Assembly: GCA_035525285.1 (NCBI GenBank)
Contig: DATLFB010000033.1
Coordinates: forward strand, 4,365-68,364
Source of the DNA: Thermoanaerobaculia bacterium
Lineage (GTDB): Bacteria > Acidobacteriota > Thermoanaerobaculia > Gp7-AA8
DNA length: 64,000 bases
Direction of reading: 5' to 3'
Of the stretch, positions 36,619-51,675 are shown piece by piece (position 1 is the stretch's first letter; every line of letters starts with the position of its first letter). The notes beneath the pieces were generated by a model. The model was not told where the DNA came from and made no database searches. It saw only the letters and a program-made list of their open reading frames with translations. The position numbers and the translations under genes are program-made.

Positions 36619-36643
36619 CCAGCCCCCAACGAGTTGTCACGAA

Positions 36644-37349: not shown

Positions 37350-37436
37350 GAACGATGAACGATGAACGATGAGCGATGAACGATGGTTCAACGCTCTGTT
37401 TCATCGCTCATCGTTCATCGTTCATCGTTCATCGTT
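37350..37436. repeat. Heptamer-tandem hairpin, family D (GATGAAC)
   Basis: gaacgatgaacgatgaacgatgagcgatgaacgatggttcaacgctctgtttcatcgctcatcgttcatcgttcatcgttcatcg. Confidence 0.85.
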
Positions 37437-38262
37437 TGAGCGCTTCTTTCGCAGCCGATCGCACCTGCAATGAGGGATCAGACTGCGAGATCGGCGTGAG
37501 GATCTTTCCCGCTTCCTCGGGCGCAATCTTCATCAGCGCGGGGATCGCGGCGAGCATCGTCGCGTCCTTCTGGTCGGGGCGCATGCCGGGGACGCGGTCG
37601 AGGCGCGAGCGGTCGAGCATCTCGCGGACCACGCCGATGGCGCCGGTGTCACCGAAGCGCGCGAGGGCGATCGCGGCGTTGTAGCGGACGTCGGGAGTCT
37701 CGTCGCTCAGCGCCTGCACGAGCGCGGGAACGGCGCGCGGGTCGCCGATCTCGCCGAGAGCGTACGCGGCGGCTTTCCGGACATCGCGCTCATCCTTCGC
37801 GAAGGACGAGAGCAGCGGCGGAACGGCGGCGGGATCGCGGAGGCGTCCGAGGGCCAGGGCTGCGTAGATGCGCGTCTCGGGCGAGCGGTCCTGCAGCGCG
37901 TCGATGAGCAGTGGCGTCGCCCGGCGGTCGCCGAGATTGCCGAGGACCATGCTCAGGTACTGGCGGATGCGGGGATCGTCGTTCTTCGCGTCGCGAAAGA
38001 CGCGCGCCACGTCGTCGACGAGATTCGGATACTTCTTCGCCTCCCCCGCGTTGATCAGCTGCGAGAGCTGATACGCGGCCTGCCACCGCTCGCGCCGCCC
38101 GCCGGAGCGGACTTCGTTCAGATAGTCGGGAACGGTCTGCTCGTCACTCGCCAGTTTTCCGAAGAGAAAGAAGATGCCGACGGCAACGGCGACGACGCCG
38201 AGGGGGAAGAGCACGAATTGGAAGAGGATCGTGCGGGGGGACTCTTTGGGGACGTCGCTCAT
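37429..38262 (-). CDS. HEAT-repeat (PBS-lyase-like) protein with N-terminal membrane anchor
   Basis: Start at MSDVPKESP (ATG 38262). Repeated ...PLLIDALQDRSPETRIYAALALGRL / PALVQALSDETPDVRYNAAIALARFGD units. Confidence 0.65.
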   Translation of the reverse strand: MSDVPKESPRTILFQFVLFPLGVVAVAVGIFFLFGKLASDEQTVPDYLNEVRSGGRRERWQAAYQLSQLINAGEAKKYPNLVDDVARVFRDAKNDDPRIRQYLSMVLGNLGDRRATPLLIDALQDRSPETRIYAALALGRLRDPAAVPPLLSSFAKDERDVRKAAAYALGEIGDPRAVPALVQALSDETPDVRYNAAIALARFGDTGAIGVVREMLDRSRLDRVPGMRPDQKDATMLAAIPALMKIAPEEAGKILTPISQSDPSLQVRSAAKEALKR

Positions 38263-38268
38263 GCGTTG

Positions 38269-38348
38269 GAATTGAAAATTGAAAATTGAAAATTGAAAAA
38301 CACGGAAGCACGATCCTTTTTCAATTTTCAATTTTCAATTTTCAATTT
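38269..38348. repeat. Heptamer-tandem hairpin, family A (AAATTGA)
   Basis: ggaattgaaaattgaaaattgaaaattgaaaaacacggaagcacgatcctttttcaattttcaattttcaattttcaattt. Confidence 0.85.
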
Positions 38349-38358
38349 GCCTCCGCAC

Positions 38359-38832
38359 TCACCGTCCCGTCCCTGCCACAACAAAATCCGGCAGATACGT
38401 CTTCAGCTGCGTCGGCGCATCCGGCACCACGATCGCGTCCTTGTCGCACACGCTCTCGCACAGGCGGCACGCGACGCATTTGTTCTTCTCGACGAAGGCG
38501 ATCTTGTAGTGGTTGGCGATCGTCTCGTCCTCGGCATCGATCATCCTGATGCACTCGAACGGACAGATGTCGACGCAGAACTCGCAGCCGGTGCAGAGAT
38601 CCTTGATGACCTCGGCTTTCGGGATGTCCTTCGGCTTGATGCGGGGGATGAAGTCGCCGTGCTGGTTCTGGATCGCGTCGACCGGGCAGTAGATGCCGCA
38701 GACCGAGCAGTCGATGCAGCGCTCGGGGTGGATGTAGTACTGGCCCTTGGCTTCGCCCCAGATCGTGTTCGTCGGACACTTGATCTCGCAGACCGAGCAG
38801 CCGATGCACTTGTCGGTGATGAAGTGGGGCAT
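38359..38832 (-). CDS. 4Fe-4S ferredoxin-type protein with four Cx2Cx2Cx3C(P) clusters
   Basis: CIGCSVCEIKCP, CIDCSVCGIYCP, CTGCEFCVDICP, CVACRLCESVCD. Confidence 0.75.
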   Translation of the reverse strand: MPHFITDKCIGCSVCEIKCPTNTIWGEAKGQYYIHPERCIDCSVCGIYCPVDAIQNQHGDFIPRIKPKDIPKAEVIKDLCTGCEFCVDICPFECIRMIDAEDETIANHYKIAFVEKNKCVACRLCESVCDKDAIVVPDAPTQLKTYLPDFVVAGTGR

Positions 38833-38867: not shown

Positions 38868-38962
38868 GAATTGCGGTTGCCCGGTTGCCCTGTTTCCCGG
38901 TTGCCCGGTGCTGTGGGTGGGCGGGACCGGGAAACCGGGCAACTGGGAAACCGGGCAACCCT
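38868..38962. repeat. Palindromic element, family I
   Basis: gcggttgcccggttgccctgtttcccggttgcccggtg...gggaccgggaaaccgggcaactgggaaaccgggcaacc. Confidence 0.8.
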
Positions 38963-39344
38963 AAACCGACAACAACTCCGAAATCGTCTTGATCAGATGC
39001 GAGCTCTGAATCGGCTTCGAGATGTACGCATTCGCCCCCAGCGCCAGCCCGCGCTCCCGATCCTCTTCCGCACCTTCGGTGGTGATGATGATGATCGGGA
39101 TGCTCCTGAGCTGGGCGTTCTGGCGGACGAGCGAGACGAGCTTGAGTCCGTCCATGACCGGCATGTTGATGTCGGTGAGGATCAGGTCGATCTTGTCCGG
39201 ACCGGAGAGTTTCTTGAGCGCGTCGACGCCGTCGACCGCTTCGATGATCTTCGCGTTCTTGAATCGCTTCAGCGAAAACGAGATCAGTTGTCGCATGGTC
39301 GGCGAGTCTTCGACGACCAGAAAGTTCGCGTTCTCCATCCCCAC
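38961..39344 (-). CDS. CheY-like single-domain response regulator
   Basis: ...NFLVVEDSPTMRQL...LILTDINMPVMDGL...GANAYISKPI. Confidence 0.8.
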   Translation of the reverse strand: MGMENANFLVVEDSPTMRQLISFSLKRFKNAKIIEAVDGVDALKKLSGPDKIDLILTDINMPVMDGLKLVSLVRQNAQLRSIPIIIITTEGAEEDRERGLALGANAYISKPIQSSHLIKTISELLSV

Positions 39345-39361
39345 GAGTTCTGCCTCTCCCC

Positions 39362-40168
39362 CTAACTGGTGGTGGTGAGCAGGTCGAGGAAGCTCTGGAT
39401 CGTGTTCAGCTTCCGCTCGGACTGCGAGTAGAGTTTCGATGAGAAGATCGCCGTCGCGGCGTGCGCGGCGAGCAATGAGAAGAGCTCGTAATCGACGGCC
39501 GAAAACGCGTCCTTCTGCTGCAGGAGCTTGTAGATCACGATCAGCCCGATCACATGCTCCTTGATCTTGAGCGGCACGGCGGCGAGCGGCTTCTCGATGC
39601 TGATCGCGCTGCCCTCGATGTCCTGATTGATGTAGTAGCTCTCCCCCGTTCTTGCCACGTTGCCGAGCACGCCCTCGCCGAGGCGCGTGGAGATCTGGTC
39701 GACGCCGGGCATCACGTCGTCGCCCTCGTAGGCGATCGTCTTCAGCTCGTTGGTCTTCTCGTCCAGCAGCAGGATCGCGAACGCCTCGGCGCCGACGAGA
39801 TTGATGATGATCTCCTGGACGATCTGGATGACCTCGCGGAAGTCCAGCGTCGAGTGGAGCTGGTAGCTCGCGACGTAGAGATTCGCGAGATTGTTGTTCT
39901 GCTCTTCGATCTCGATGTAGCGAACGGCGAAGTCCTTGTTCTCTTCCTCGACTTCGCGGAAGCGCTGCTGGATGCGCCGGTTCTCTTCGGCGAGCTGGTT
40001 CACCTGATCGCGCAGGCGCTGGATCTCGTCCGGCGTGCGACCCTCGGTCTCGAGCGCCGCCATGCGGAAGCGCAGCCGCTGGTTCTCGCGCAGGAGCTCT
40101 TCGGTGAACTCCTTGCCCTTGTTGAACAGTTCGAGGAACTTCTCAGCTCTCTGGTGTTCGTCACTCAT
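39362..40168 (-). CDS. Coiled-coil plus GAF domain protein
   Basis: N-terminal heptad-rich 100 aa (ELLRENQRLRFRMAALETE...QLAEENRRIQQRFREVEEEN), then a GAF-like region ...GEGVLGNVARTGESYYIN... Confidence 0.55.
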   Translation of the reverse strand: MSDEHQRAEKFLELFNKGKEFTEELLRENQRLRFRMAALETEGRTPDEIQRLRDQVNQLAEENRRIQQRFREVEEENKDFAVRYIEIEEQNNNLANLYVASYQLHSTLDFREVIQIVQEIIINLVGAEAFAILLLDEKTNELKTIAYEGDDVMPGVDQISTRLGEGVLGNVARTGESYYINQDIEGSAISIEKPLAAVPLKIKEHVIGLIVIYKLLQQKDAFSAVDYELFSLLAAHAATAIFSSKLYSQSERKLNTIQSFLDLLTTTS

Positions 40169-40205
40169 GGTTGCGGACCCGGAAGATGCCGTGAATGTAG
40201 CACAA

Positions 40206-40270
40206 GTGGAGGACAGGCAATCCTGCCTGTCTCATGAAACGCGGACAGGCAGGATTGCCTGTCCTCCACT
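40206..40270. repeat. Palindrome family H
   Basis: gtggaggacaggcaatcctgcctgtctcatgaaacgcggacaggcaggattgcctgtcctccac. Confidence 0.85.
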
Positions 40271-40271
40271 T

Positions 40272-41342
40272 TCACGTGCCGATGCAAAGCTTGCGGATGG
40301 CATTCGGGATCAGCGGCAGCGCCAGCACTTCTTCGATCGCGCCGGTCTTGATCGCCTCGGCGGGCATGCCGAAGATGATCGCGGTCTCCGACGACTCGGC
40401 GATCGTTTTCCCGCCGCGCTCGCGCACCTCGCGAATGGCCTCGGAACCGTCGTCGCCCATGCCCGTCATGATCACCGCAACCATCCGCTCCCTGCACGCA
40501 TCGCTCGCGGTCCTGAACAGACGATCGACGGACGGCGCGTACAGATCGCTCGATCCCGCGGGGAACACGCGCACCTGCAACCCCTCGGCAATCCGGCGCA
40601 CTTCGCTCTGCATCCCGCCGGGCGCGATGTAGACATAGCCGGGGACAAGGATCTCGCCGTCGCGCGCTTCCTTCACCTCGTACGCGCTGAGCTTGTTCAC
40701 GCGATCGGCGAAGAGACGCGTGAACGTCGGCGGCATGTGCTGCGCGACGACGAACGGAACGGGCAGCAGCGGCAGCGACTGAAAGAGATGCTGCAGCGCG
40801 GGCGGACCGCCGGTGGAGCAGCCGATGGCCACGAGCTCGATGCCCTGCGGACACGACTCCGGTACGGGAGTGCCCTCGTCCGCGGGCTCGGCTTCCTCCT
40901 GCACGCGGCGGCGGAGGTTCTCCATCCGCAGCTCGCCGATCTGCAGCACTTTCCCGACGAGATCTTTCTGGATCTCTTCGAGCCGCGGCGAGACGCGCCC
41001 GCCGGGCTTCGCGATGAAGTCGAGCGCGCCGAGCTCGAGGGCCTTGAAGACACTCTTGTCGCTCGAGCGCGAAGAGACGGCGATGACGGCGGTCGGCAGA
41101 TTGACCATCACCCAGCGCAGGAACGCGAAGCCGTCCATGATCGGCATTTCGAGATCGAGCGTGATGACGTCCGGACGATGCTTCATCACCTGCTTGATCC
41201 CGTCCTCGCCGTTGACCGCGGTGCCGACGACTTTGATGCGCGGATCGGTCTCGAGCATGCGCGTGAGCGTCACGCGGTTGTACGCGGAGTCGTCGATGAC
41301 GAGCGCGCGGATGGCGGGAGTTGCGGACGACACCGCGCGCAA
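40272..41342 (-). CDS. cheB: Chemotaxis response regulator protein-glutamate methylesterase
   Basis: N-terminal REC (ALVIDDSAYNR...VITLDLEMPIMDG), C-terminal CheB methylesterase (...IGCSTGGPPAL...HMPPTFT...MTGMGDDG). Confidence 0.85.
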   Translation of the reverse strand: MRAVSSATPAIRALVIDDSAYNRVTLTRMLETDPRIKVVGTAVNGEDGIKQVMKHRPDVITLDLEMPIMDGFAFLRWVMVNLPTAVIAVSSRSSDKSVFKALELGALDFIAKPGGRVSPRLEEIQKDLVGKVLQIGELRMENLRRRVQEEAEPADEGTPVPESCPQGIELVAIGCSTGGPPALQHLFQSLPLLPVPFVVAQHMPPTFTRLFADRVNKLSAYEVKEARDGEILVPGYVYIAPGGMQSEVRRIAEGLQVRVFPAGSSDLYAPSVDRLFRTASDACRERMVAVIMTGMGDDGSEAIREVRERGGKTIAESSETAIIFGMPAEAIKTGAIEEVLALPLIPNAIRKLCIGT

Positions 41343-41414
41343 TTCTACTTCCGACAGTCAGGGATGCCCCTCACCCTGCCCCTCTCCCCGCTCGCGGGGA
41401 GAGGGGACTGATGC

Positions 41415-42266
41415 CTACTTCTGATACACCATGTCGTGCTTCAGATGCCGCAGCTTGAACTGCGTCGAGAGCGAGATCAGCGACTCGGAGTGGCCGAGGA
41501 GGAGGTAGCCGCCGTCGATGAGGCGGTTGTAGAAGTTGTTCACCACGACCTTCTTCGACGAGTCGTCGAAGTAGATGATCACGTTGCGGCAGAAGACGAC
41601 GTCGAGATGGCCGAGGAGCGAGACGCGGGCCTCGTCGTAGAGATTGAGGCGGCCGAAGGAGATCCGGTTGCGGATCTCGTCGATCACGCGCCACGAGCCG
41701 TCGGCTTCGCGCGTGAAGTAGGTGTCGCGCAGGCGCGCGTCCGTCGCGCGGAATGCATTCTCGCGATACGTGCCCTTGCGCGCTTTCGACAGGACCTGCT
41801 GATTGATATCGCTGGCGAAGATCTCGAACGCCGCGCGCTGGTACCACCCCGCGTCCTGCAGCAGCATCGCGAGCGAGTACGGCTCCTCGCCCGATGAGCA
41901 TCCCGCCGACCAGATGCGGATCTTCTTGATCGGCTTCCGCCCCAGCAGCTCCGGCACGATCTCGTCGGTGAAGGCCTGGAGCTGCGCGGGCTCGCGGAAG
42001 AAGTAGGTCTCGTTCGTCGTGACGAGATCGAAGATCTGATCGAACTCCGCGTCCGCGCGCGGATCGTACTGAAGGAAGTAGAAGTATTTCTGGAACGAGT
42101 CGAAACTCAGCTCGCGCGCGCGGGGCGAGAGGCGCTTCTGCAGGAGGTACTTCGACGAGTCGGCGAACCACATGCCGGAGCGTTTGTAGATCTGGTCCCG
42201 CAGCAGCCTGAAGACGTCGTCAGGCAGCTCCATGTGATGGTTCAACGAAAACCCGAACGTGGTCAT
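41415..42266 (-). CDS. cheR: Chemotaxis protein methyltransferase
   Basis: ...ETYFFREP...IRIWSAGCSSGEEPYSLAMLL...VFCRNVIIYFD (SAM-dependent CheR motifs). Start ATG 42266; the ORF-track N-terminal 19 aa derive from hairpin D. Confidence 0.85.
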   Translation of the reverse strand: MTTFGFSLNHHMELPDDVFRLLRDQIYKRSGMWFADSSKYLLQKRLSPRARELSFDSFQKYFYFLQYDPRADAEFDQIFDLVTTNETYFFREPAQLQAFTDEIVPELLGRKPIKKIRIWSAGCSSGEEPYSLAMLLQDAGWYQRAAFEIFASDINQQVLSKARKGTYRENAFRATDARLRDTYFTREADGSWRVIDEIRNRISFGRLNLYDEARVSLLGHLDVVFCRNVIIYFDDSSKKVVVNNFYNRLIDGGYLLLGHSESLISLSTQFKLRHLKHDMVYQK

Positions 42267-42278
42267 AGAACAAAGCCA

Positions 42279-42367
42279 GCGATGAACGATGAACGATGAC
42301 GATGAACGATGAACGGCCGCCACGCCTGCTCATCGTTCATCGTTCATCGATCATCGTTCATCGTTCG
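42279..42367. repeat. Heptamer-tandem hairpin, family D (GATGAAC)
   Basis: gatgaacgatgaacgatgacgatgaacgatgaacggccgccacgcctgctcatcgttcatcgttcatcgatcatcgttcatcgttcg. Confidence 0.85.
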
Positions 42368-44595
42368 GTCCCACTCTTCTCTCGCATTGCCGCCAGAATC
42401 GCGGCAATCACCACCTCGCGCCGGCTGTCCGCCGTCCGCCACGCCTCTTCCAGCTGGTCGCGATACAGCTCCTTGTGTCGAACGAAGGTTTCCGAGACAT
42501 CGTCGAGAATGGCCGCGTTCTCGAGCGCTTTGAACAGAAACGGGAACGACGAGGGGTCGGCGACTTTGTCGAGCGCCTGCACCGCGGACTGCTGCACGTA
42601 CGTATCGGGATCGTCGAGCGCGCGGTGCAGCGCGGAGAGCGCGGTGCGGTCGCCGCGCACGCCGAGGGCGGTCGCCGCGGCGGCACGGATGCGCCAGTCG
42701 TCGTGCGAGAGCGCCGCGAGGAGGCGATCGAATACGTCGCGGCCCGGAATGCGCGCGAGCGCGAGCATCGCCGCGCGCTGGATCTCCGGATCGGCCTCGT
42801 CGAGACACTGGAAGAGCACGTCTTTCACGCTCGCGTTTTCCGACTTGCCGAGCGCTTCGATGACCGCGATGCGCACCGGCGGCGGGTCGTGCGTGAGATG
42901 GCGCATCAGCGGCTCGATCGAATCGGGATGGCGATACTCGCCGAGCGCCTGCGCGGCCGCGGTGCGGATCCAGATGTCGTTGTCGTCGAGTGAGCTGATC
43001 AGCGGCTCGAGCCCGGTCTCCGGACGCAACCGCACGATCGCGTTGATCGCCGCGAGCCGCACCGAGGTCGCTTCATCGGCGAGCGAGAGCACCAGCTGAT
43101 CGGCGAAGCGTTCTTCGCCGAACTTGCCCATGAGCGAGACCGCTTTCTGCCGGATCGTCGGATCGCTGTCCTTCGACGCGAGCAGCAGCTCGTCGTGATA
43201 GCCCTCGCCCTGAATGTTCACGAAAACCGAGAGAGAGTTGAGCTTGATCGGGACCGAGGAGGACTGAAGGAGCCTGCGGATTTTCGTCATCACCTCGCCC
43301 TCGAACTCCGGGAAGGCGGTGACGAGCGCGGAGATCGAGTTGACCGCGGCCTGCTGCGAGGCGACGTCGTAGTCGTCGAGCTTCGCGAGGAGATAGTCGA
43401 TCGACGCGGGATCCGGAATCTCGCCGATGGTCTCGATGGCCAGGCGCCGGATCATCGGATTGTCGTGATCGAGGAAGGGCAGGATGCTCGGGATGCTCTC
43501 CCGGCCGCCGACGACATTCACGACGCGCAGGAGCAGTCCGACGATCTCGTCCTCCTCGGCGTTGCGCAGCGCCTCGAGAATGCTCGGCACGGCGGCGGCA
43601 CCGAAGTCGATGAGCGCTTGCGCGACGATCTCGGCGGTGTCGGGATGTTCGAGATACGCGATCAGGACCGGCAGCGCGCTCGCGTCCGAGGACCAGCCGA
43701 GAAACTTGAGGATGAACGCCTTCACCTCGCGCTTCGGCGTGCTGTGCAGATGCTCGACGAGCGGGACGATCTTTTCGCGCGGGAACGACTCGCGGAAGCG
43801 GTTCTGGATCAGTTGCCGCTCCGCCTGTTCGACGATGCGCGGCTTGCTCGCCTCGGCGATGCGCACGAGTGCGCGCAGCGCGGTGAGGTTGAGCTTTTCT
43901 TCGTCGGCGATGACTCGCAGCAGGAAGTTGACCGTGCCGACGTCGGCGATCTTGCCGATCGCCTCGAGCACCGGCTTGCGCAGCGACTTCTCCGCGAAGA
44001 GCGGAAGGATCGCGGGGAGCGCGGCGCGGTCGCCGATCTCGCCGACCGCTTCGATGACGTGAAACTTCAGCCAGAGATCCTCACGCTCGTGAAGGACGCG
44101 CATGAGATGCGGCAGCGCAGCGGCGTCGCGATATTTTCCGAGCGAAGAGACGACCGAGGAGGCGACGTTGATGTCGTGGTCCTTTGCCAGCAATTCGAGG
44201 AGGATGTCGAATCCGTCGCGGCTGCGGAGATCGCCGAGGAGATTGACCAGCGAGAGGCGGACGTCGACGTCCTGCTCGCGCCGCAGCCGCGCGACGATCG
44301 GCTCGATCGCCGGCGTCCCGATGCGCATCAGCGCCTCGGTCGAGGAGTTGCGCTTGCCGGCGTTCTCCGCGTCGGAGAGCGCGTCGAGGAGGCCATCGAC
44401 GATCTCCGGCCGCGCGTCACGCACGAGCCCGTCGACGATGGTCTTGCGCACGCGCCAGTCCTTGTCGCCGAGGAGCTCGAACATGAGCGGCAGATTGCGG
44501 TCGTCCGCCGAATGGGCGACGAGGTAGGCCGCTTTCTGGCGCGCGTCGGGGTCGGACGAGCGCGCTTGTTCGATGATTTGAGGGTCGGCTGTCAT
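42358..44595 (-). CDS. Large HEAT-repeat (PBS-lyase-like) protein, ~745 aa
   Basis: Around 20 tandem HEAT-like units (e.g. ...DALSDAENAGKRNSSTEALMRIG..., ...LISSLDDNDIWIRTAAAQALGEY...). Start at MTADPQ (ATG 44595), outside hairpin F. Confidence 0.7.
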   Translation of the reverse strand: MTADPQIIEQARSSDPDARQKAAYLVAHSADDRNLPLMFELLGDKDWRVRKTIVDGLVRDARPEIVDGLLDALSDAENAGKRNSSTEALMRIGTPAIEPIVARLRREQDVDVRLSLVNLLGDLRSRDGFDILLELLAKDHDINVASSVVSSLGKYRDAAALPHLMRVLHEREDLWLKFHVIEAVGEIGDRAALPAILPLFAEKSLRKPVLEAIGKIADVGTVNFLLRVIADEEKLNLTALRALVRIAEASKPRIVEQAERQLIQNRFRESFPREKIVPLVEHLHSTPKREVKAFILKFLGWSSDASALPVLIAYLEHPDTAEIVAQALIDFGAAAVPSILEALRNAEEDEIVGLLLRVVNVVGGRESIPSILPFLDHDNPMIRRLAIETIGEIPDPASIDYLLAKLDDYDVASQQAAVNSISALVTAFPEFEGEVMTKIRRLLQSSSVPIKLNSLSVFVNIQGEGYHDELLLASKDSDPTIRQKAVSLMGKFGEERFADQLVLSLADEATSVRLAAINAIVRLRPETGLEPLISSLDDNDIWIRTAAAQALGEYRHPDSIEPLMRHLTHDPPPVRIAVIEALGKSENASVKDVLFQCLDEADPEIQRAAMLALARIPGRDVFDRLLAALSHDDWRIRAAAATALGVRGDRTALSALHRALDDPDTYVQQSAVQALDKVADPSSFPFLFKALENAAILDDVSETFVRHKELYRDQLEEAWRTADSRREVVIAAILAAMREKSGTER

Positions 44596-44597
44596 AC

Positions 44598-44672
44598 GTG
44601 CCACGTGCTGCGTGCTGGGTGCTGCGTGCCGCCGCTGCCTTTACGCAGCACGCAGCACGTAGCACGCAGCAC
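44598..44672. repeat. Heptamer-tandem hairpin, family F (GTGCTGC)
   Basis: gtgccacgtgctgcgtgctgggtgctgcgtgccgccgctgcctttacgcagcacgcagcacgtagcacgcagcac. Confidence 0.85.
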
Positions 44673-44674
44673 CT

Positions 44675-45535
44675 CTATCGCGTCCCCGTCCTCACCTTCT
44701 CGATCTCTTCCCTCTTCATCTGCACGAACTGCTGCAGGGTCTCCGTGTAGATCTCCGTGTCGCGGCGCACGCGCAGCGGGACGCGTGAGTCGTAATACTG
44801 GCGGCCTTCCTCGACCTCGTCGTGGAGGATCTCGAAGAAGTTGTTGTTGCGGATCCCCTGCTCCACTTTCCCCGCGTGATAAATGATGATGTCAGAGAGG
44901 ATCAGACGCGCGAGGCGTCGTGCTTCATCGTACTCGCGCGGCTCGATCGGCACTTCCCTGGTGTCGCCCAATTCGGGAAACAGCTTGCGCAGGATCTGCC
45001 GGAACTCCTTCTCGGGGATCAGCTCCTCGATGTACTCGTCGGCGCCGTACAGGTTCGTCGGATTCGCGCGGAAGCGGTTCGCGCGGAAGAGTGCGCCGAT
45101 GAGGATGACGCGCGTGTGCTCGAGTCCGGGATCGGCCTTGATGTCCTCGGAGACTTCGACGCCGAGCTTACCCTTCAGATAGACGTTGACGATGACGAGA
45201 TCGGCGCGCGCGCGGCGCACGTACTCGAGCGTCGGATCGCCGGTCTCGAAGTACTGCACCTCGAAGCCGAGGCGGCGGAGATGCTCGCCGAGGAAGCGGC
45301 GGAACGGGCGGGGCTCGTCGGCGATGGCGGCGGTGCGGCGGCGCGGCATCGGAGTCGGAGGCGGCGGCTCGTCGTCGAGATCGGGATGTGCGACGGGATG
45401 CATGCCGCTCGCGCTGCGCGGCTTGAGCACCATCTGATACTCGCAGCGCGGACAGGCCACGCGCACCGGTGAGCTCAGCGGCAGGTTCACGACGGCCCGA
45501 AAGGTCGAGCCGCATTTTTTGCACGTCAGTTCCAT
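44675..45535 (-). CDS. Zinc-ribbon (MJ0042-type) plus receiver-like domain protein
   Basis: MELTCKKCGSTFRA...VACPRCEY, then ...ADLVIVNVYLKGKLG...RVILIGALF (REC-like). Confidence 0.5.
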   Translation of the reverse strand: MELTCKKCGSTFRAVVNLPLSSPVRVACPRCEYQMVLKPRSASGMHPVAHPDLDDEPPPPTPMPRRRTAAIADEPRPFRRFLGEHLRRLGFEVQYFETGDPTLEYVRRARADLVIVNVYLKGKLGVEVSEDIKADPGLEHTRVILIGALFRANRFRANPTNLYGADEYIEELIPEKEFRQILRKLFPELGDTREVPIEPREYDEARRLARLILSDIIIYHAGKVEQGIRNNNFFEILHDEVEEGRQYYDSRVPLRVRRDTEIYTETLQQFVQMKREEIEKVRTGTR

Positions 45536-45557
45536 CGATGAAGTCCGGTGGCCGGGA

Positions 45558-46280
45558 TCACGCCGTGCTTGCCGCGAGTGCCCTGCTGTCCAACAGCTTG
45601 TCCAAATCGAGGAGGATCGTCAACGCGTCCGAGACGCGGAAGACGCCGCGAATCGACTCGTCGAGCTCCGTCGAGTGCACCACGGGGGGCGGCTCGATCG
45701 TTTCCGCCCCCGTTTTCACGACGCGCAGGACGCGGTCGACGACGAAGCCGATCATCTCGTTGCGCTGGTCGATGACGACGATCCGCGTGTCGGCCGTGTC
45801 CTCCCCCGCCGGCGGATGGCCGAGTTTTTTGCGCACGTCGACGAGGGTCACGATCGTGCCGCGGAGGGAGATGATGCCGACGACCGACGCGTCGGCGTTG
45901 GGGATGCGCGTGAGCGGCCGCGGCGTGACGATCTCCACGATGCGCTCGATGTCGACCGCGTACTGCTCGCGCGCGATGACGAAGGTGAGGAGCTCGAGCT
46001 GCGACTCGGGCGCCGTTTCCTCCTCGGCGATCTTTCCCGCCTCGGCCTCGCGACGCTTGCCGGCTTGTTCCTTGAAGCGATCGAGCTTGGAGGACGTCGG
46101 CATGTCATCCCGAGCGGAGCCAGGGACCTGGGGCTCGGGTGGCGGCGCGATCTGCGATGTTTCGGGCGCGGATGGCGCCGCCTCCCGCCCGGGTCCCTCG
46201 CTCTCGCTCGGGATGACATCAGAACGCGCCTCTTCTTTACCTTTCTTTGCCTTCTTGCGGATCTTGACCAGATCAACCAT
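45558..46280 (-). CDS. cheW: Chemotaxis coupling protein CheW (with low-complexity N-terminal extension)
   Basis: ...LLTFVIAREQYAVDIERIVEIV...VGIISLRGTIVTLVDVRKKLG...IVVIDQRNEMIGFVVDRV. Confidence 0.8.
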   Translation of the reverse strand: MVDLVKIRKKAKKGKEEARSDVIPSESEGPGREAAPSAPETSQIAPPPEPQVPGSARDDMPTSSKLDRFKEQAGKRREAEAGKIAEEETAPESQLELLTFVIAREQYAVDIERIVEIVTPRPLTRIPNADASVVGIISLRGTIVTLVDVRKKLGHPPAGEDTADTRIVVIDQRNEMIGFVVDRVLRVVKTGAETIEPPPVVHSTELDESIRGVFRVSDALTILLDLDKLLDSRALAASTA

Positions 46281-47085
46281 GCGCGCTCTCCATGTGGTGC
46301 TCGCGGGCGGCGGCGGCGACGCGCGACGGGTCGATCGTCTCCGCGTCTTCGCCGAACGCGTCGAGGAGCGCGGTCGTGGCGAGGGTGTTGATCAGGCGGG
46401 GGATGCCGCCGCTGACGGCGTGGATCTCTTCCATGGCTCTTCGGTCGAACGGATTGCGCGTGCCGCCGGCGACGCGAATGCGATGTTCGATGTAGGCAAT
46501 CGTCTCGTCGAGCGACAGCGGACCGAGAGAGTACCGCATGCCGATGCGCTGCCGAAGCGGCGCGTACGCATCGCGCTCGAGGCGCCGCTCGAGCTCGGGC
46601 TGGCCGATGAGAATCACCGAGAGGAGGTTCTGATCGTCGAGCTGAAAGTTCGTCAGCAGGCGGATCTCGTCGAAGGTCGCCTTCGTCGGAATCAGCTGCG
46701 CCTCGTCGATCATCAGCACCGGCTCGCGCTTCTCTTCGTACAGCTCGTAGAGGCGCGTGTGGATCTGATCGAGGATGTCGTTCCGAAACCGCGCCGGCTC
46801 GACGCCCATCCCGCGCGCGATCTGCTTCAAAAGCTGCGTCGGCGTGAGCCGCGGATTGATCAGCAGAACCACCGGCCGCTCCTCGCCGATGCGATCGATC
46901 AGCGCGCGGCTGAGCGTCGTCTTCCCCGACCCGATGTCGCCCACGAGCAGCGCGAGCTCCTTTTCCTCGACCGCGTATTCGAGGCGGGCGAGTGCCTCTT
47001 TGTGCTGAGGGGACTCGTAGAGGAATCCTGGATCCGGCGTCCTGCCGAAGGGTTTGGTGGCGAGGCCGAAGAATTCTTCGAACAT
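46273..47085 (-). CDS. ExeA-like AAA ATPase
   Basis: ...LALLVGDIGSGKTTLSRALI (Walker A)...VLMIDEAQLI (Walker B)... Confidence 0.65.
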   Translation of the reverse strand: MFEEFFGLATKPFGRTPDPGFLYESPQHKEALARLEYAVEEKELALLVGDIGSGKTTLSRALIDRIGEERPVVLLINPRLTPTQLLKQIARGMGVEPARFRNDILDQIHTRLYELYEEKREPVLMIDEAQLIPTKATFDEIRLLTNFQLDDQNLLSVILIGQPELERRLERDAYAPLRQRIGMRYSLGPLSLDETIAYIEHRIRVAGGTRNPFDRRAMEEIHAVSGGIPRLINTLATTALLDAFGEDAETIDPSRVAAAAREHHMESAHG

Positions 47086-47094
47086 GGATCAAAT

Positions 47095-47180
47095 GAAGGC
47101 AGAAGGCAGAAGGCAGAAGGCAGAACTGAGAAGTTCCACGTTTCTGCCTTCTGCCTTCTGCCTTCTGCCTTCTGCCTTCA
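47095..47180. repeat. Heptamer-tandem hairpin, family C (GAAGGCA)
   Basis: tgaaggcagaaggcagaaggcagaaggcagaactgagaagttccacgtttctgccttctgccttctgccttctgccttca. Confidence 0.85.
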
Positions 47181-49232
47181 TCAATGCACCAGCGCCCCCG
47201 CCCTCACATCGCGGGCACGCCCCCCAAAATGATCGATCAGCGATCCCACATCGACGACGAGAATGATGTCGCTCTCCCCGATTTCCGTCGCCCCCGCGAT
47301 CCCGGGAATCGTCTTCAGCCTCTCGCCGATCGACTTGATCACTACTTCCTGCTGGCGCACGAGCGCGTCGACGAGAATGCCGATCGTCTTTTCGCCGGCG
47401 CGCGTGACGACGATGAACCACTTCGTGTCGGGGCCGTGGTCGTGGTTGTCCTCGAGGCTGAACGCATCGGCGAGCCGCAACAGCGGCAGCGTGAAGTCGC
47501 GCAGCGTGAAGACTTCCTTCCGCTCGACTGTGCGGATGTCGCGCGAGTAGATGCGCAGCGACTCTTCGACGGACGTGAGCGGAATGGCGAACTTCTCGCC
47601 GCTGGCCTCGACGATCAATGCCTGGATGATCGCCAGCGTGATCGGCAGGGAGATGCGGAACGTCGTTCCTTCGCCGAGGCGCGTGACGACGTCGATCGTG
47701 CCCTTGAGCTCCTGGATGTTCTTCTTGACCACGTCGAGGCCGACGCCGCGCCCGGAGATCTCGCTCACGGCGGCAGCGGTGGAGAAGCCGGGCGTGAACA
47801 TCAGCTCGTATGCGCGCTGCTGATCGACCGCGTCCTTCTCGCCGATCAGTCCGCGGTGCACCGCGACGCGGCGGATGTTCTCCGGATCGATCCCGCGCCC
47901 GTCGTCGGTCACATCGAGCACGACCGAGTTCCCCTGCTGATACGCGTTCAGCGTCACGCGTCCCACGGGATTCTTTCCCGCCGCTCGCCGCTCCTCCGAG
48001 GGCTCGATGCCGTGATCGATGGCGTTGCGGATGATGTGCATCAGGGGATCGGTCAGCTCCTCGACCATCATCTTGTCGAGCTCCGTGTCCTCGCCGCGCA
48101 GGATGAGCTCGATCTCTTTGGTCAGCTCGCGCGCGACCTTGCGAACGGTTCGCGATAGTTTCGAGTAGATCTGTCCGACCGGGACCATGCGGATCTCGAT
48201 GACCGACTTCTGCAGCTCGTTGAGCTTGCGGTCGAGATTGCGCGAGATCTTTCCCAGCTCGTGCGAGGCCATGCGCGCCTGCTGCGCGTGCGTGCCCTGG
48301 CCGAGGGCTCTCGCCAGGGTTTCGAGCTGCGTCTTCTCGATGATCAGCTCGCCAACGATGTTCATCACGTGATCGAGCTTCGCGATGTCGACGCGCACGG
48401 TCTGCGAGAGCGATCGCAGCGACAGCTCTTCTTCCGCCGCCGCCTCGATCGGCGCGACGGTGACGCCGGCCGGACCGGCCACGGCCGGCGAGACCGCTTT
48501 TCGCAGCGAGGTCACCACCGCTTCCGGCGCGATCGCCTGCACGGCCGCGTCGTTGAGCATCGATCCGTACAGCAGGCGGAAGGCGATGCCGTTCACGTTG
48601 CCCGTCGGAATCGCGGGCAGCGTCGAGATCACTTCGCCCGCCTCGCTGAGGTTCGCGGTGATCGCGCGCAGCCGCTCGTCGAAGTCGGCGAAATCGAACG
48701 TCACTTCGAGCGAGAGGATGTGCTTGCCGGAGCGCACGTTCTCCATCAGGCGATGCTCTTCGTATTCGGTGAGCGACTTCTTCGTCTGCTCGTCGAGGGT
48801 CAGCGCCGCGAACGGATCTTCATGTTTCTGCTGCGGCTGGCTGGTGACGATCTGGTGGATGCGGCGCGTGAGGCCGGTCATGTCGACGAGACCGCCGACG
48901 GACGAGTCGTTGATGGCGATGACGAGGCGATTGAGGCTGTCGACGGAGTCGTAGAGCAGATCGATCAGCTCGCGCGAGAACTCGATCTTCCCCATGCGCA
49001 GGCGGTCGAGCATGTCCTCGAGGCTGTGCGAGAGCTCGGAGATCTCGGTGAAGCCGAGCATGCCCGCGAGGCCCTTGAGCGAGTGCACCTCGCGGAAGAT
49101 CTTGTTGACCAGCTCGGGGCGGACATTCTTTCCCTGCTGTTCGAAGTCGACGAGATCGCGCGAGAGTGTGTCGAGAAGCTCTTCCGCCTCGCTGGTGAAC
49201 TCTTCCCGTGCGCGATCGTCTTCGCGTGCCAT
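47181..49232 (-). CDS. cheA: Chemotaxis histidine kinase CheA
   Basis: Hpt (...FREVHSLKGLAGMLGF), dimerisation, HATPase (...HIIRNAIDHGIE...DDGRGID...GRGVGLDVV), C-terminal CheW-like domain. Confidence 0.9.
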   Translation of the reverse strand: MAREDDRAREEFTSEAEELLDTLSRDLVDFEQQGKNVRPELVNKIFREVHSLKGLAGMLGFTEISELSHSLEDMLDRLRMGKIEFSRELIDLLYDSVDSLNRLVIAINDSSVGGLVDMTGLTRRIHQIVTSQPQQKHEDPFAALTLDEQTKKSLTEYEEHRLMENVRSGKHILSLEVTFDFADFDERLRAITANLSEAGEVISTLPAIPTGNVNGIAFRLLYGSMLNDAAVQAIAPEAVVTSLRKAVSPAVAGPAGVTVAPIEAAAEEELSLRSLSQTVRVDIAKLDHVMNIVGELIIEKTQLETLARALGQGTHAQQARMASHELGKISRNLDRKLNELQKSVIEIRMVPVGQIYSKLSRTVRKVARELTKEIELILRGEDTELDKMMVEELTDPLMHIIRNAIDHGIEPSEERRAAGKNPVGRVTLNAYQQGNSVVLDVTDDGRGIDPENIRRVAVHRGLIGEKDAVDQQRAYELMFTPGFSTAAAVSEISGRGVGLDVVKKNIQELKGTIDVVTRLGEGTTFRISLPITLAIIQALIVEASGEKFAIPLTSVEESLRIYSRDIRTVERKEVFTLRDFTLPLLRLADAFSLEDNHDHGPDTKWFIVVTRAGEKTIGILVDALVRQQEVVIKSIGERLKTIPGIAGATEIGESDIILVVDVGSLIDHFGGRARDVRAGALVH

Positions 49233-49304
49233 GGACCGCGCTCATGGTAGCGCATCGCCAGTCCCCTCTCCCGGCCAGGAGTCTGCGCGGCAGGAAGCGA
49301 TCGT

Positions 49305-49362
49305 GGAGGGCGGACGTCTCGTCCGCCCAGCGGACGGGAGGCGGACGAGACGTCCGCCCTCC
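49305..49362. repeat. Palindrome family G
   Basis: ggagggcggacgtctcgtccgcccagcggacgggaggcggacgagacgtccgccctcc. Confidence 0.8.
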
Positions 49363-49427
49363 ATGCCACGCGGGAGAGGATTCTCCAGGCCGGCCGTGAG
49401 TGCCAGGGTGTGGGGCCCTTCATCCGG

Positions 49428-49805
49428 CTACGCGACTTTCAAAAGTCTGCGTAGTTTCTCGACGAGCTCCCCCGCCTGGAACGGCTTGACCAGGTACTCC
49501 TCCGCGCCGAGCGCCGCGGCGCGGCGGCGGTCCTCTTCGGTCGACTCGGTGGAGATGACCATGATCGGGATGGCGCGGTAGACGGGATGGTTCTTGAGGA
49601 AGCTCACCAGCTCGAGGCCGTTGATGTCGGGCATGTTGATGTCGGTGAGGATGGCGTCGAACTTGTGATGAGGAAGCGTCTTCAGCGCTTCGAAGCCGCT
49701 CGCGGCCTCGACGATCTCGAGGTCGTAGCTCTCGGTGCCGCTTTCGATGATCGTCGTCAGGTAGGCGCGCATCGACGACGAGTCTTCCACTACCAGAATC
49801 TTCAT
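49428..49805 (-). CDS. cheY: Chemotaxis response regulator CheY
   Basis: MKILVVEDSSSMRAYL...AILTDINMPDINGLEL...GAEEYLVKPF. Start at MKILVV. Confidence 0.85.
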   Translation of the reverse strand: MKILVVEDSSSMRAYLTTIIESGTESYDLEIVEAASGFEALKTLPHHKFDAILTDINMPDINGLELVSFLKNHPVYRAIPIMVISTESTEEDRRRAAALGAEEYLVKPFQAGELVEKLRRLLKVA

Positions 49806-49809
49806 ACCC

Positions 49810-51675
49810 TCACCGCCGCCCCGCCCTCTCGGAAGCAAACACCGCGTTGCCGAATGCGTATCCGGCCTGCGACAGGAAAATCTCGAGACCCGTCATGCTG
49901 TCGATCGGCGCACGATGCTCGGCGTTGTCGCCGTACAGAATACCAATCGCGCGATGCTCGTGCATGATCGGAAGGGCAACGACTTCCGTCGGCAGCAATC
50001 CGCCGAGGCCGTCGATGAGCTCGACATTCGCAGGCGTGCGCCGCATTTTCCCGTGATGGGCCTGCCCGCTTTGCGCGACGTCGGCGAGTACTGACGTCTG
50101 ATCGCGCGCGATGCGAAGCCTGCGCACGCGCGCGTCCGCCTCATCGCCCGCGGCGCCGGTGACGCCGAATCCGCCCAGGCCGACGAACTCTTTTTCGTTC
50201 GCCATGAAGAGCGCGCCGCGGTCGAGGTATTCGGCGGACAACCGGAGAATCGTCGCGGAAACCTGTCCGATGTCGTTCGGATTCGAGAGCTCGTTGATGA
50301 GCTGCCGCAGCAGATGGAACGAGCGATCGATGGTGTCCTTCGTGGCCATCTCGTAGAACTTCCTGCCGGCGTCGGGGCCGAGGCCGCGCGTGGTCTGCTC
50401 CCAATGCTCGAAGGCTCGCTCGGCGAAGAGCACGAGCTCGTCGGCGAAGAGCGAGAGCTCTTCTTCGGCGAGCCCCGGCTGCAGTCGCGCGGGAGACGGC
50501 TTGGTGAGATAGAGATCGGCGCCCGCGCGCAGGAGGTTGTGGCGGCGGCGCAGATCGGCTTCGATGTCGATGAGGACGATCGGCAGCCGCGGGTTCTTGC
50601 GCTTGACCTGCTGCATCAACCGGACGGAGGCCTCGTCTTCGGTCAGCTCGAGGAAGGTGACGAAGAAACTGTTCGCGCGGAAGAGCTCCGTCATCGCGGC
50701 GCGTACGTCTTCGAGTGTGCCGTACTGGAAAATCTTCGCGCCTTCGCGTGTGAACGCGCGCCGCGCGGCGACACGCACGAGCGGGTTGCGCTCGAACAAC
50801 ACGACATTCCGAAACGCCGCCTCCGGGGACTCGACTTCGAACAACCCGCCGGCGACTTTGAACTGGCCGCTGCCCGCGGGCGGCTGGCGCGTGGAGGACA
50901 GGCGATCCCGCCTGTCGTCTTCCGGGACAGGCAGGATTGCCTGTCCTCCACTGACGGTGTCCGGCAACTCTTCCACGGGTGTGAACGGCTTCTCGGCCGG
51001 CGCAGGGAACGTCAGGATGTTGTCGGTCGCCGTTTCCGCGGTGCCGGGAAGTTTCGGCACGGGCGGAGGACCGAGCGGCTGTCCGAGTCCGAGGTTGAGC
51101 GATGCGGGCGTGGCCTCGGCGGGAGCGGATCCGCGCAGCAATGCTTTCCCCACTTTCAGCGACTCCTCGAGTCCTTTCAGCGGCTTGATCTTCTCGCCGT
51201 CCGCGGCGCCGACGATCCTGTTCGGCGCGAACCCGCCTTCCTTGAAGAGTTGATCGGGCTCGTACTCGACGTCGAGCGGCGTCATCGTCTCGCTGAGGAT
51301 GAAGTTGAACTCCCCTTCCTTGCTCTGCAGCAGTGGCGTGACGACGGTCTGCACGCGCTCGCGAATCGCGTTCGCCAGATCGTCTTGCGAGAGGAGATTG
51401 AGCTCGAGGACGGCGGTGCCGTTCGGAATCCCCTGCTCCTCCATCTTCCGCACGACCTTCGCGCTCTCCTCGGGAATCAGCCCCGCGTTGAGGAGGTACG
51501 CGACGAGGTCATGATCCTCGGGGGATGAGGCATTGACCACGAGCCCGCCGCGAAACATCACCGTGTGCCGTCCGCTCGAGTTGATGATCTCGAGCACTCC
51601 CGTGCGACGGGAGAGATAGACGATCTGGACGATGTCGGTGAGGGAGAGATCCTCTAAACGCCCAAGGAGGCTCAT
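49810..51675 (-). CDS. DUF4388 + receiver-like + GAF domain protein, carrying an in-frame palindrome H insertion
   Basis: Start at MSLLGRLEDLSLTDIVQIVYLSRRTGVLEI (DUF4388-like). ...LPIVLIDIEADL... (REC-like). C-terminal GAF-like ...RGALFMANEKEFVGLGG.... Segment ...DTVSGGQAILPVPEDDRRDRLSSTRQPPAG is encoded by palindrome 50886-50951. Confidence 0.55.
   Translation of the reverse strand: MSLLGRLEDLSLTDIVQIVYLSRRTGVLEIINSSGRHTVMFRGGLVVNASSPEDHDLVAYLLNAGLIPEESAKVVRKMEEQGIPNGTAVLELNLLSQDDLANAIRERVQTVVTPLLQSKEGEFNFILSETMTPLDVEYEPDQLFKEGGFAPNRIVGAADGEKIKPLKGLEESLKVGKALLRGSAPAEATPASLNLGLGQPLGPPPVPKLPGTAETATDNILTFPAPAEKPFTPVEELPDTVSGGQAILPVPEDDRRDRLSSTRQPPAGSGQFKVAGGLFEVESPEAAFRNVVLFERNPLVRVAARRAFTREGAKIFQYGTLEDVRAAMTELFRANSFFVTFLELTEDEASVRLMQQVKRKNPRLPIVLIDIEADLRRRHNLLRAGADLYLTKPSPARLQPGLAEEELSLFADELVLFAERAFEHWEQTTRGLGPDAGRKFYEMATKDTIDRSFHLLRQLINELSNPNDIGQVSATILRLSAEYLDRGALFMANEKEFVGLGGFGVTGAAGDEADARVRRLRIARDQTSVLADVAQSGQAHHGKMRRTPANVELIDGLGGLLPTEVVALPIMHEHRAIGILYGDNAEHRAPIDSMTGLEIFLSQAGYAFGNAVFASERAGRR
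50886..50951. repeat. Palindrome family H, intragenic and in-frame
   Basis: gtggaggacaggcgatcccgcctgtcgtcttccgggacaggcaggattgcctgtcctccac. Confidence 0.85.

Follow-up and report, generated by a model that had tools for sequence, protein, structure and literature searches.

How is a chemosensory pathway fed whose gene cluster encodes a histidine kinase, a coupling protein and both adaptation enzymes, but no chemoreceptor? This question is raised by a run of minus-strand genes on contig DATLFB010000033.1 (assembly GCA_035525285.1) of a bacterium of the class Thermoanaerobaculia (Acidobacteriota), within a 64-kb stretch of DNA that was analyzed as a whole and is called the window in the following. 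In this cluster, cheA, cheW, cheR, cheB and two cheY genes are interleaved with five genes for proteins outside the classical Che set, and a gene for a methyl-accepting chemotaxis protein (MCP) is missing. We regard the cluster as a likely acidobacterial (Thermoanaerobaculia) member of the type known as Esn or group beta in Geobacter and as Che8 in Myxococcus xanthus, which carries no mcp gene; the assignment to Che8 follows from published gene order. New here are the strict conservation in Acidobacteriota-related lineages, the set of accessory proteins with two degenerate receivers, a fusion of a HEAT-repeat protein to CheR, and a variant that does contain an MCP gene.

Gene order, conservation and relationship to known systems

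Genes were called across the whole window (G+C content ~64%) by third-position G+C (GC3), and the called genes were scanned against Pfam. All genes from 52204 down to 24685 are located on the minus strand. Read in the direction of transcription, the cluster (38961-51675) starts with genes for a PATAN/pseudo-receiver/GAF protein, the receiver protein CheY_a, CheA, an ExeA-like AAA+ ATPase, CheW and a zinc-ribbon pseudo-receiver protein (ZnREC), and continues in its 3' half with genes for a large HEAT-repeat protein (HEAT745), CheR, CheB, a coiled-coil/GAF protein and a second receiver protein, CheY_b (Table 1). The gaps between genes of the che part range from -8 to 195 bp and hold no terminator-like sites, a scan of the region for promoters and terminators gave nothing beyond chance, and Rfam had no matches in the window. 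The genes are probably co-transcribed as one co-directional chemosensory cluster. A first-pass annotation, made from the sequence alone, had listed these genes together with a ferredoxin gene and a second HEAT-repeat gene further downstream, and GC3 calls and Pfam recovered every one of them in its place on the minus strand.

This layout is known from Geobacter, for which Tran et al. (2008) defined MCP-less "group beta" che clusters that are conserved in Geobacter, M. xanthus, Stigmatella, Anaeromyxobacter and Plesiocystis, and for which a preliminary knockout pointed to an effect on the extracellular matrix (PMC2577667). Chan et al. (2017) found that GSU2222 (esnC, encoding CheA), GSU2221 (the ATPase) and GSU2220 (esnB, encoding CheW) are all required for growth on electrodes, but not for growth on Fe(III) oxide. 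The orphan GAF-domain MCP EsnA (GSU1704), which belongs to class 40H, was also required on electrodes and interacted with EsnB and EsnC in two-hybrid assays, and the orphan REC-GGDEF protein EsnD (REC denoting a receiver domain) was proposed as the output (PMC5585712). Like the window cluster, the group beta/Esn clusters (cluster 5 in G. sulfurreducens) come without an mcp gene, and their order of CheA, ATPase and CheW genes (GSU2222-GSU2221-GSU2220) is that of the window. The window version differs in belonging to Acidobacteriota, in having one cheW instead of two, in the degenerate receiver of its PATAN protein and in its attachment to ribH-nusB; furthermore, the electrode phenotype is specific to Geobacter. 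One relative stems from a Geobacteraceae metagenome-assembled genome (MAG; GCA_054813885.1, locus L170), in which the eleven-gene order PATAN/REC, CheY, CheA, AAA_22, CheW, CheW, ZnREC, HEAT673, CheR, CheB and GAF equals that of the window, with the second cheW as the only addition. The proteins encoded at the two loci are 24-60% identical by tblastn, with E values down to 2e-172 (CheA 46%, ATPase 52%, CheR 48%, CheB 46%, CheY_a 60%, GAF 50%).

A comparable arrangement is found in M. xanthus, whose Che8 cluster (MXAN_4751-4759) comprises CheY8a, CheB8, CheR8, two unnamed genes, CheW8a, CheW8b, CheA8 and CheY8b; there is no Mcp8, and the phylogeny of Che proteins places Che8 together with Che7 and Dif (Moine et al. 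2014, PMC3945109). Judging from locus-tag tables, Che8 and the window cluster have in common the missing MCP and a series of CheY, CheA, CheW(s), two non-che genes, CheR, CheB and CheY, the two non-che genes of Che8 (MXAN_4754 and MXAN_4755) being matched to those of the window by position only. CheA8 has no receiver domain, like the window CheA, and is longer (862 vs 683 aa), and unlike in the window, the locus-tag numbering leaves no room for an ATPase gene between cheA8 and cheW8b. A paper from 2022 still listed the function of Che8 as unidentified, and pull-down experiments and deletion mutants implicated CheA8 and CheA7 in the phosphorylation of the orphan regulator MXAN_4468 (PMC9040617).

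The Che7 pathway of M. xanthus, to which the first-pass annotation had likened the cluster, is similar in some respects. CheA7 is a 683-aa protein with the same domain order as the window CheA, and a non-che gene (MXAN_6961) lies just upstream of cheR7, in the position of the HEAT745 gene. We take MXAN_6961 to be cpc7, the gene for the HEAT protein of Che7, and des7, the desaturase gene, presumably belongs to the Che7 cluster as well. In Che7 the HEAT protein serves as a partner of CheY (Cpc7 binds CheY7; Darnell et al. 2014, as summarized in PMC11514114 and PMC9040617), and the window also encodes a HEAT protein upstream of cheR. However, Che7 encodes the cytoplasmic MCP Mcp7 and a desaturase, whereas Pfam finds no MCP domain in the window and no desaturase domain in the genes of the region; conversely, Che7 has none of the AAA+ ATPase, ZnREC, PATAN and GAF proteins that are all present here. 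With its MCP-less layout, its ATPase and its flanking second CheY, the window cluster sides with the beta/Che8 type, and its closest counterparts are group beta/Esn and Che8. The likeness to Che7 therefore stands as far as the HEAT gene upstream of cheR and the common grouping of Che7 and Che8 are concerned, but not as the closest match.

Within Thermoanaerobaculia, the cluster is a deeply conserved, single-copy-looking feature. Relatives of its CheA with 64-87% identity occur in 80 GTDB species genomes, mostly of this class, and all but one of them are labelled Acidobacteriota, the exception being a 3.3-kb contig labelled Candidatus Dormibacteria. Altogether, 160 Thermoanaerobaculia-type loci were fetched (from the 80 GTDB species genomes plus 80 metagenome loci), and in the ~130 that are sufficiently long the gene order is shared, always without an MCP gene. 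Essentially every GTDB locus of adequate length shows the order from ribH-nusB to cheY_b, with which the metagenome loci agree. When metagenomes were scanned with a profile built on distant relatives of ZnREC, nearly all matches were again loci of the Thermoanaerobaculia type, which informed the downstream boundary rather than the distant variants. The window ZnREC itself has a 100% match that is annotated as Thermoanaerobaculia. In some of these bacteria (L041, L044, L045, L050 and others), the block from cheA to cheY_b stands apart, without nusB, the PATAN gene and cheY_a upstream, which marks PATAN/CheY_a as a separable module; the break falls within the 195-bp gap before cheA, and this gap between cheY_a and cheA probably holds a promoter. 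The upstream neighbors of cheA in this group are unrelated genes (folD, methyltransferase, Usp, radical SAM).

More distant versions were located by profile searches that started from ZnREC and the PATAN protein and were followed by gene-context look-ups. They include an Acidobacteria MAG (L164), which has the cluster with both the GAF protein and cheY_b, a 1.9-Mb contig (L169), a further distant version of the cluster order (L172), the Geobacteraceae locus L170, and a representative of Candidatus Fischerbacteria (L161), which the NCBI taxonomy treats as a candidate phylum of its own. The clusters of bacterium HR11 and of a hot-spring contig (L162 and L165) stop at cheB and have no separate cheW. 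This HR11 type appears as a stripped-down version, with no cheW between the ATPase and ZnREC genes and a PATAN protein without a receiver match. None of the clusters of L161, L162, L164, L165, L169, L170 and L172 contains an MCP gene, and a PATAN gene followed by a CheY gene forms the 5' end in all distant lineages compared. The five non-che genes (PATAN, AAA+ ATPase, ZnREC, large HEAT and coiled-coil/GAF) belong to the conserved set. Beyond the former Deltaproteobacteria, the cluster type extends to the HR11 lineage, to Candidatus Fischerbacteria and to Thermoanaerobaculia, a class of Acidobacteriota that is abundant in soil.

The signaling proteins proper are intact, their key residues (CheA, the CheYs, CheB, ATPase, CheW) being kept in essentially all of 79-125 orthologues. 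According to Pfam, CheA consists of P1 (a single Hpt domain), P3, P4 and P5 and lacks a C-terminal receiver; its phospho-accepting histidine is kept in 115 of 116 sequences, the remaining one showing an alignment gap, and its median identity across Thermoanaerobaculia is 80%. Two acidobacterial CheAs of 667 and 674 aa with the same four-domain architecture are listed under ACF (alternative cellular function) in the supplement of PMC10782961, their likeness to the window CheA being one of architecture only. No proteins of the cluster are better conserved across Thermoanaerobaculia than the two CheYs: CheY_a (median identity 93%) has an invariant equivalent of Asp57 in 97 of 97 sequences, and CheY_b, whose phospho-acceptor Asp is likewise invariant, reaches the highest conservation of all (median 97%). 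The phospho-acceptor Asp of the CheB receiver is invariant in 79/79 sequences, and CheR has a median identity of 84% across relatives. CheW carries a ~90-aa low-complexity N-terminal extension and is less conserved overall (median identity 55%). Its residues corresponding to Glu38 and Arg62 of E. coli CheW are invariant in all 101 sequences.

Table 1. Genes of the chemosensory region in transcription order (coordinates in the window, or in the named locus for the last three rows)
Feature	Coordinates	Strand	Evidence or position
ribH	52205-52699	-	upstream of nusB
nusB	51785-52204	-	upstream of PATAN gene
PATAN (PatA_N/DUF4388)/degenerate receiver/GAF fold, 621 aa	49810-51675	-	Pfam, AlphaFold, Foldseek
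CheY_a, single-domain canonical receiver, 125 aa	49428-49805	-	Pfam REC, E=3e-28
CheA histidine kinase, 683 aa	47181-49232	-	Pfam
ExeA/GspA-like AAA+ ATPase (AAA_22), 270 aa	46273-47085	-	Pfam AAA_22, E=2.9e-22
CheW	45558-46280	-	Pfam CheW, E=2e-33
Zn-ribbon + pseudo-receiver (ZnREC) + helical C-terminal domain	44675-45535	-	Pfam, AlphaFold, Foldseek
HEAT/PBS-lyase-like repeat protein, 745 aa (HEAT745)	42358-44595	-	Pfam HEAT_2, E=3.9e-83
CheR methyltransferase (CheR_N + S-adenosylmethionine (SAM) domain)	41415-42269	-	Pfam, E=2.3e-60
CheB methylesterase, canonical receiver	40272-41342	-	Pfam, E=9.5e-58
Coiled-coil/GAF protein, 268 aa	39362-40168	-	Pfam GAF_2, E=5.5e-15
CheY_b, canonical receiver	38961-39338	-	Pfam, E=2e-26
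4x[4Fe-4S] ferredoxin (Fer4), four CxxCxxCxxxC motifs	38359-38832	-	Pfam Fer4
HEAT_PBS protein, 277 aa, N-terminal hydrophobic helix	37429-38262	-	Pfam
390-455-aa membrane protein gene, locus L090	15155-16324		
390-455-aa membrane protein gene, locus L134	16732-17967		
390-455-aa membrane protein gene, locus L005	20106-21473		

The missing receptor gene and the HEAT protein

The first-pass claim that the cluster has no chemoreceptor gene could be extended to the entire window: Pfam finds no MCPsignal domain in any of its called genes, and six-frame tblastn with signaling-domain probes from E. coli Tsr and a Geobacter MCP gave no match, although the true MCP of locus L171, which served as positive control, was detected with E = 9e-24 and 3e-35. 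Likewise, of the 172 loci that were fetched (2.35 Mb in total), 171 have no mcp gene within or close to the cluster. Neither MCP nor flagellar genes, which the first-pass annotation had named as the context that would speak for a flagellar system, were found around the cluster in the window; flagellar genes are missing within 37 kb downstream and 12 kb upstream of it. In the window and the seen flanks of the 172 loci, flagellar genes are absent, and so are cheC, cheD, cheV, cheX and cheZ. The window and all flanks are also devoid of pil genes, and no PilJ-type MCP is present.

The one locus with a receptor, L171, has the order CheA, CheW, substrate-binding protein, MCP, HEAT787, CheR, CheB, PATAN/REC and GAF270. 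Its MCP (768 aa, HAMP and MCPsignal domains) is encoded directly upstream of HEAT-CheR-CheB. This MCP-containing locus is closer to Che7 than the window cluster is.

Two candidates for a receptor substitute within the cluster were considered and rejected. That HEAT745 or some other protein of the cluster accepts the methyl groups is unsupported, as the MCP methylation consensus [ASTG][ASTG]xx[EQ][EQ]xx[ASTG][ASTG] has no match in any cluster protein; the sole half-motif in HEAT745 (EQARSS, residues 9-14) is not kept in the HR11 or Fischerbacteria orthologues. The coiled-coil/GAF protein was considered as a hidden MCP, but it has no MCPsignal match, and the clusters of HR11, Fischerbacteria and L169 do not encode it.

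Given the role of EsnA in Geobacter, the MCP beside the HEAT gene in L171, the kept CheW residues and the lack of a methylation motif, the pathway is most likely fed by one or several MCPs encoded elsewhere in the genome. In M. xanthus, the orphan receptors McpB and McpJ have been suggested for Che7 and Che8 (PMC3945109). The term "MCP-less" used in the first-pass annotation is thus correct for the cluster, but probably not for the pathway, considering that EsnA binds the Geobacter CheW and CheA and that the L171 MCP adjoins a HEAT gene.

The HEAT745 gene lies immediately upstream of cheR, and full-length orthologues of its product are encoded in all variants of the cluster; even HEAT787 of L171 aligns with HEAT745 over the full length (28% identity, E = 4e-57). 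In L172, the two neighbors are joined in a 665-aa HEAT-CheR fusion, the N-terminal ~375 residues of which are homologous to HEAT745, with a complete CheR as the remainder (40% identity over the full CheR length). CheR proteins with fused repeats are known from M. xanthus (FrzF, CheR3, CheR4 and CheR6; table in PMC3945109) and similarly present a helical-repeat module attached to or adjoining CheR. Their repeats are TPR repeats, in contrast to HEAT in the L172 fusion, and HEAT745 of the window is a separate protein. By analogy, HEAT745 might take part in the choice of the CheR substrate.

The boundary with the respiratory block

In the window, the cheY_b gene is followed after 128 bp by a gene for a 4x[4Fe-4S] ferredoxin (Fer4) and, 27 bp beyond the latter, by a gene for a second, small HEAT protein, and the first-pass annotation had counted both as cluster members, with a possible redox link through the ferredoxin. 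Comparison with related loci does not support this. Variable inserts of 0.9-4.4 kb separate the last cheY from Fer4 in relatives, and in 21 of the 28 related loci with both genes in view, cheY_b and Fer4 lie at least 0.9 kb apart; the unrelated DNA between them encodes either a 390-455-aa polytopic membrane protein or, on the opposite strand, a 1170-aa gene product. Where the sequence continues (L090, L134, L140, L144, L151), Fer4 is followed by the small HEAT gene, a Rieske gene and cytochrome b. In L164 and L062, by contrast, the bc/oxidase block, Fer4 and the small HEAT gene are all absent, and ctaA comes directly after cheY_b; nor do the clusters of HR11, Fischerbacteria, L169 and the Geobacteraceae MAG have Fer4 or the small HEAT gene. 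Because the two genes are separated from the che genes by inserts, travel with Rieske/cytochrome b and vanish together with that block, they probably belong to the respiratory block and not to the che cluster, which ends at 38961. Neither the redox link nor the membership of the 277-aa HEAT protein is hence retained.

The membrane protein of the inserts has no Pfam match, and in most relatives its gene starts at the cheY_b stop (ATGA/GTGA overlap); it is missing from the window. The ferredoxin is 89-96% identical across relatives and forms a conserved pair with the 277-aa HEAT_PBS gene (37429-38832, minus strand), and the pair looks like an undescribed accessory of a bc-type complex. The adjacent respiratory block (24685-37318, minus strand) encodes a Rieske protein, a cytochrome b split in two genes, a 1121-aa multihaem cytochrome c, a CarboxypepD_reg-domain protein and, in its oxidase part on the same strand, COX1, COX3, COX4, COX2 and CtaA. 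SCO1 and DUF420 genes lie further on, at 21002-23772.

Accessory proteins, signal flow and rival explanations

The first gene of the cluster encodes a protein in which a PATAN domain, a disordered linker, a degenerate receiver, a helical linker and a C-terminal GAF fold follow one another. Pfam recognizes the PATAN domain (PF14332, E=2.5e-19) and, weakly, the receiver, and does not detect the GAF domain that the first-pass annotation had proposed; this proposal is nevertheless upheld by the AlphaFold model (mean confidence, pLDDT, 76) and by Foldseek, the top matches of which are REC-GAF sensor kinases and isolated GAF domains (target TM-scores 0.67-0.76). When this C-terminus was compared by hhalign with the GAF domain of the 268-aa coiled-coil protein, no significant similarity emerged, and a hidden Markov model (HMM) search against PDB sequences yielded no more than a match with E=0.15 to the GAF domain of a Geobacter MCP. 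The phospho-acceptor Asp of the receiver is replaced by Glu in 69 of 74 orthologues (Thermoanaerobaculia), and Asp is present in L164 and Fischerbacteria.

A second degenerate receiver is that of ZnREC, the family of which has 419 representatives at E<=1e-10. Here the phospho-acceptor Asp57 is replaced by Asn in 147 of 150 sequences (by Glu in the HR11 type) and Lys109 by Glu in 150/150. For its AlphaFold model (pLDDT 86), Foldseek returns receivers that include the FrzS pseudo-receiver. The conserved, helical C-terminal domain of ~85 aa (44675-44960 in the window; consensus ARRLARIILSDIxLYN...) has no Pfam model. The same ~85-aa domain occurs several times over in proteins of 760-970 aa (P0126, P0127, P0131), and in two Nitrospirota loci (L163, L166) a stand-alone Zn-ribbon/REC gene with this domain directly follows a rhomboid protease gene, away from che genes.

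The ATPase gene is located between cheA and cheW, its stop overlapping the cheW start by 8 bases, and the Walker A Lys and Walker B Glu of the protein are invariant in all 125 sequences. Its nearest NCBIfam model is TIGR03015 (XrtA/PEP-CTERM-associated ATPase), matched over the full length with 226 bits, below the model cutoff. The 268-aa GAF protein starts with a coiled coil (residues ~1-100), and homologues are encoded at the same 3' position in L164, L170, L171 (55% identity) and L172.

Mostly by homology, the most likely course of signaling can be sketched as follows. One or more MCPs encoded elsewhere, comparable to the cytoplasm-sensing GAF-MCP EsnA of Geobacter, would couple via CheW to CheA, and CheA~P would phosphorylate both CheYs and the receiver of CheB; orphan receivers, for example those of REC-GGDEF proteins, are possible further targets. 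CheR and CheB would methylate and demethylate the remote MCP. The large HEAT protein may work together with the adaptation and output enzymes, that is, with CheR and/or CheY~P, as suggested by the fusion of HEAT to CheR in one relative and by the binding of Cpc7 to CheY7 in Che7. The PATAN protein, ZnREC and the AAA+ ATPase would act as non-phosphorylatable adaptors or scaffolds. The output might be a non-flagellar switch related to surface, matrix or stress, by analogy with electrode colonization and matrix in Geobacter and with the action of CheA8 on MXAN_4468 in Myxococcus.

A GAF/HD-GYP-type (HD_5) protein is encoded at 56446-58251, 4.5 kb upstream of the cluster, and this gene is syntenic in L014, L046, L057-L061 and L069, among others; a partial REC-GGDEF gene is located at the left edge of the window (1-1013). 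Both may be candidates for an EsnD-like output through cyclic dinucleotides.

Several points weigh against the assignment to the Esn/group beta/Che8 type and the signal flow derived from it. The link to GSU2212-2224 and MXAN_4751-4759 is made through the Geobacteraceae MAG and through published gene orders and annotations, and L170 is presumed to represent "group beta" and not "group alpha" because it has no HD-domain gene and because the distribution is wide. The remote-receptor step comes solely from homology, and clusters of the HR11 type, without a separate cheW, are odd for a receptor-coupled system. Moreover, outputs differ between Geobacter and Myxococcus, and the HEAT-CheR fusion is seen in only one contig family. 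A rival, receptor-independent reading is that no MCP takes part in these lineages; HEAT, ZnREC and the AAA+ ATPase would replace the receptor in organizing and controlling CheA and CheW, and CheR/CheB would modify a non-MCP substrate such as a cluster protein or a response regulator. This reading would account for the lack of an mcp gene in the window and in 171 of 172 loci, for the missing cheW of the HR11 type and for the position of the HEAT and ZnREC genes, which occupy the place of mcp7 in Che7, and CheR is able to methylate a non-MCP protein, namely PhoP in Salmonella (PMC8546571). Yet the homologous Geobacter cluster uses an orphan MCP that binds its CheW and CheA, HEAT coexists with a receptor in L171, CheW retains the residues that are conserved in receptor-coupled CheW proteins, and no cluster protein has a methylation consensus, the half-motif of HEAT745 being lost in distant orthologues; we therefore consider a receptor-independent pathway improbable. 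Slightly less probable still is the specific form that in Acidobacteriota, or at least in the HR11 type, no MCP is involved, the ~740-aa HEAT protein, ZnREC and the ATPase forming a sensory scaffold for CheA and CheR/CheB methylating a non-receptor protein. If true, this would make it the first chemosensory system known to work without a receptor.

The 5' end of the cluster suggests another relationship, as the operons of the cyanobacterial Tax/Pix and the Pil-Chp systems (type IV pilus, or Tfp, class) also begin with a gene for a PATAN-receiver protein and, next to it, one for a single-domain CheY. The PATAN-receiver and CheY pair could accordingly act like PixG/PixH or PilG/PilH on a pilus motor, with the ExeA/MshM-like ATPase tied to pilus or secretin biogenesis. 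The persistence of the pair at the 5' end in all lineages, the canonical PATAN receiver of Fischerbacteria and L164, the binding of PATAN regulators to the type IV pilus motor in Synechocystis (reported in bioRxiv 10.1101/2021.06.11.447907) and the presence of pilC, pilQ and pilP in the same G. sulfurreducens transposon-sequencing (Tn-Seq) list of electrode defects as esnB and esnC (PMC5585712) are all consistent with it. However, Tfp-class systems have an operon MCP (PixJ/PilJ) and a hybrid CheA with a receiver and often several Hpt domains, none of which applies to the window, where CheA has one Hpt and no receiver, unlike Tfp-class kinases (PMC10782961). The PATAN protein departs from the cyanobacterial PatA type by its degenerate receiver, which in Thermoanaerobaculia is predicted not to be phosphorylatable, and by its extra GAF domain; pil genes are missing from the window and flanks, and the Geobacter phenotype was read as cyclic di-GMP/biofilm formation rather than twitching (PMC5585712). 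Control of type IV pili is thus unlikely. A redox-linked Che7-like pathway with both HEAT proteins as CheY partners, as outlined in the first-pass annotation, would agree with the closeness of Fer4 and the small HEAT gene to cheY_b in the window, with the position of the region upstream of the Rieske/cytochrome b/oxidase block in many Thermoanaerobaculia and with the Cpc7-CheY7 pair, but is very improbable in view of the inserts, of the absence of Fer4 and the small HEAT gene both where the bc/oxidase block is lacking and in the distant clusters, and of the MCP and desaturase by which Che7 differs. An ordinary flagellar chemotaxis operon with its receptors and flagellar genes elsewhere, finally, could be read from the full and intact set of CheA, CheW, CheY, CheR and CheB; with no flagellar genes and no cheC, cheD, cheV, cheX or cheZ in sight, five conserved non-che genes interleaved with the che genes, and characterized homologues that control non-motility traits, it is hardly credible. 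The non-flagellar, alternative-function character proposed at the outset is supported.

Elsewhere in the window, a stretch of lower G+C content (0.60-0.62) at 16800-20322 has the appearance of an island that entered at the pdxH end. By eye, it contains toxin-antitoxin-like pairs (ParE/RelE-like at 16895-17188 with a partner at 17188-17418; HicA/HicB-like at 19244-19641), together with a 234-aa unknown gene and an 84-aa duplicate of the pdxH 3' end (18993-19247), which nearly repeats the end of the intact pdxH (19711-20322). Just beyond pdxH, at 20564-20672, lies a 36-bp tandem repeat of three copies (98% matches) with GGATTGA heptamers.

The cluster type described here has been known since 2008, yet few chemosensory pathways are less well understood; the phenotypes known from Geobacter are limited to those of CheA, CheW, the ATPase and the orphan MCP. 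The assignment of the Thermoanaerobaculia cluster to the Esn/group beta/Che8 type overturns nothing in the current understanding, but it gives context and targets for work on Geobacter and Myxococcus. In particular, the MCP gene beside the HEAT gene in L171 and the HEAT-CheR fusion in L172 are natural variants that provide testable hypotheses on the function of the HEAT protein.

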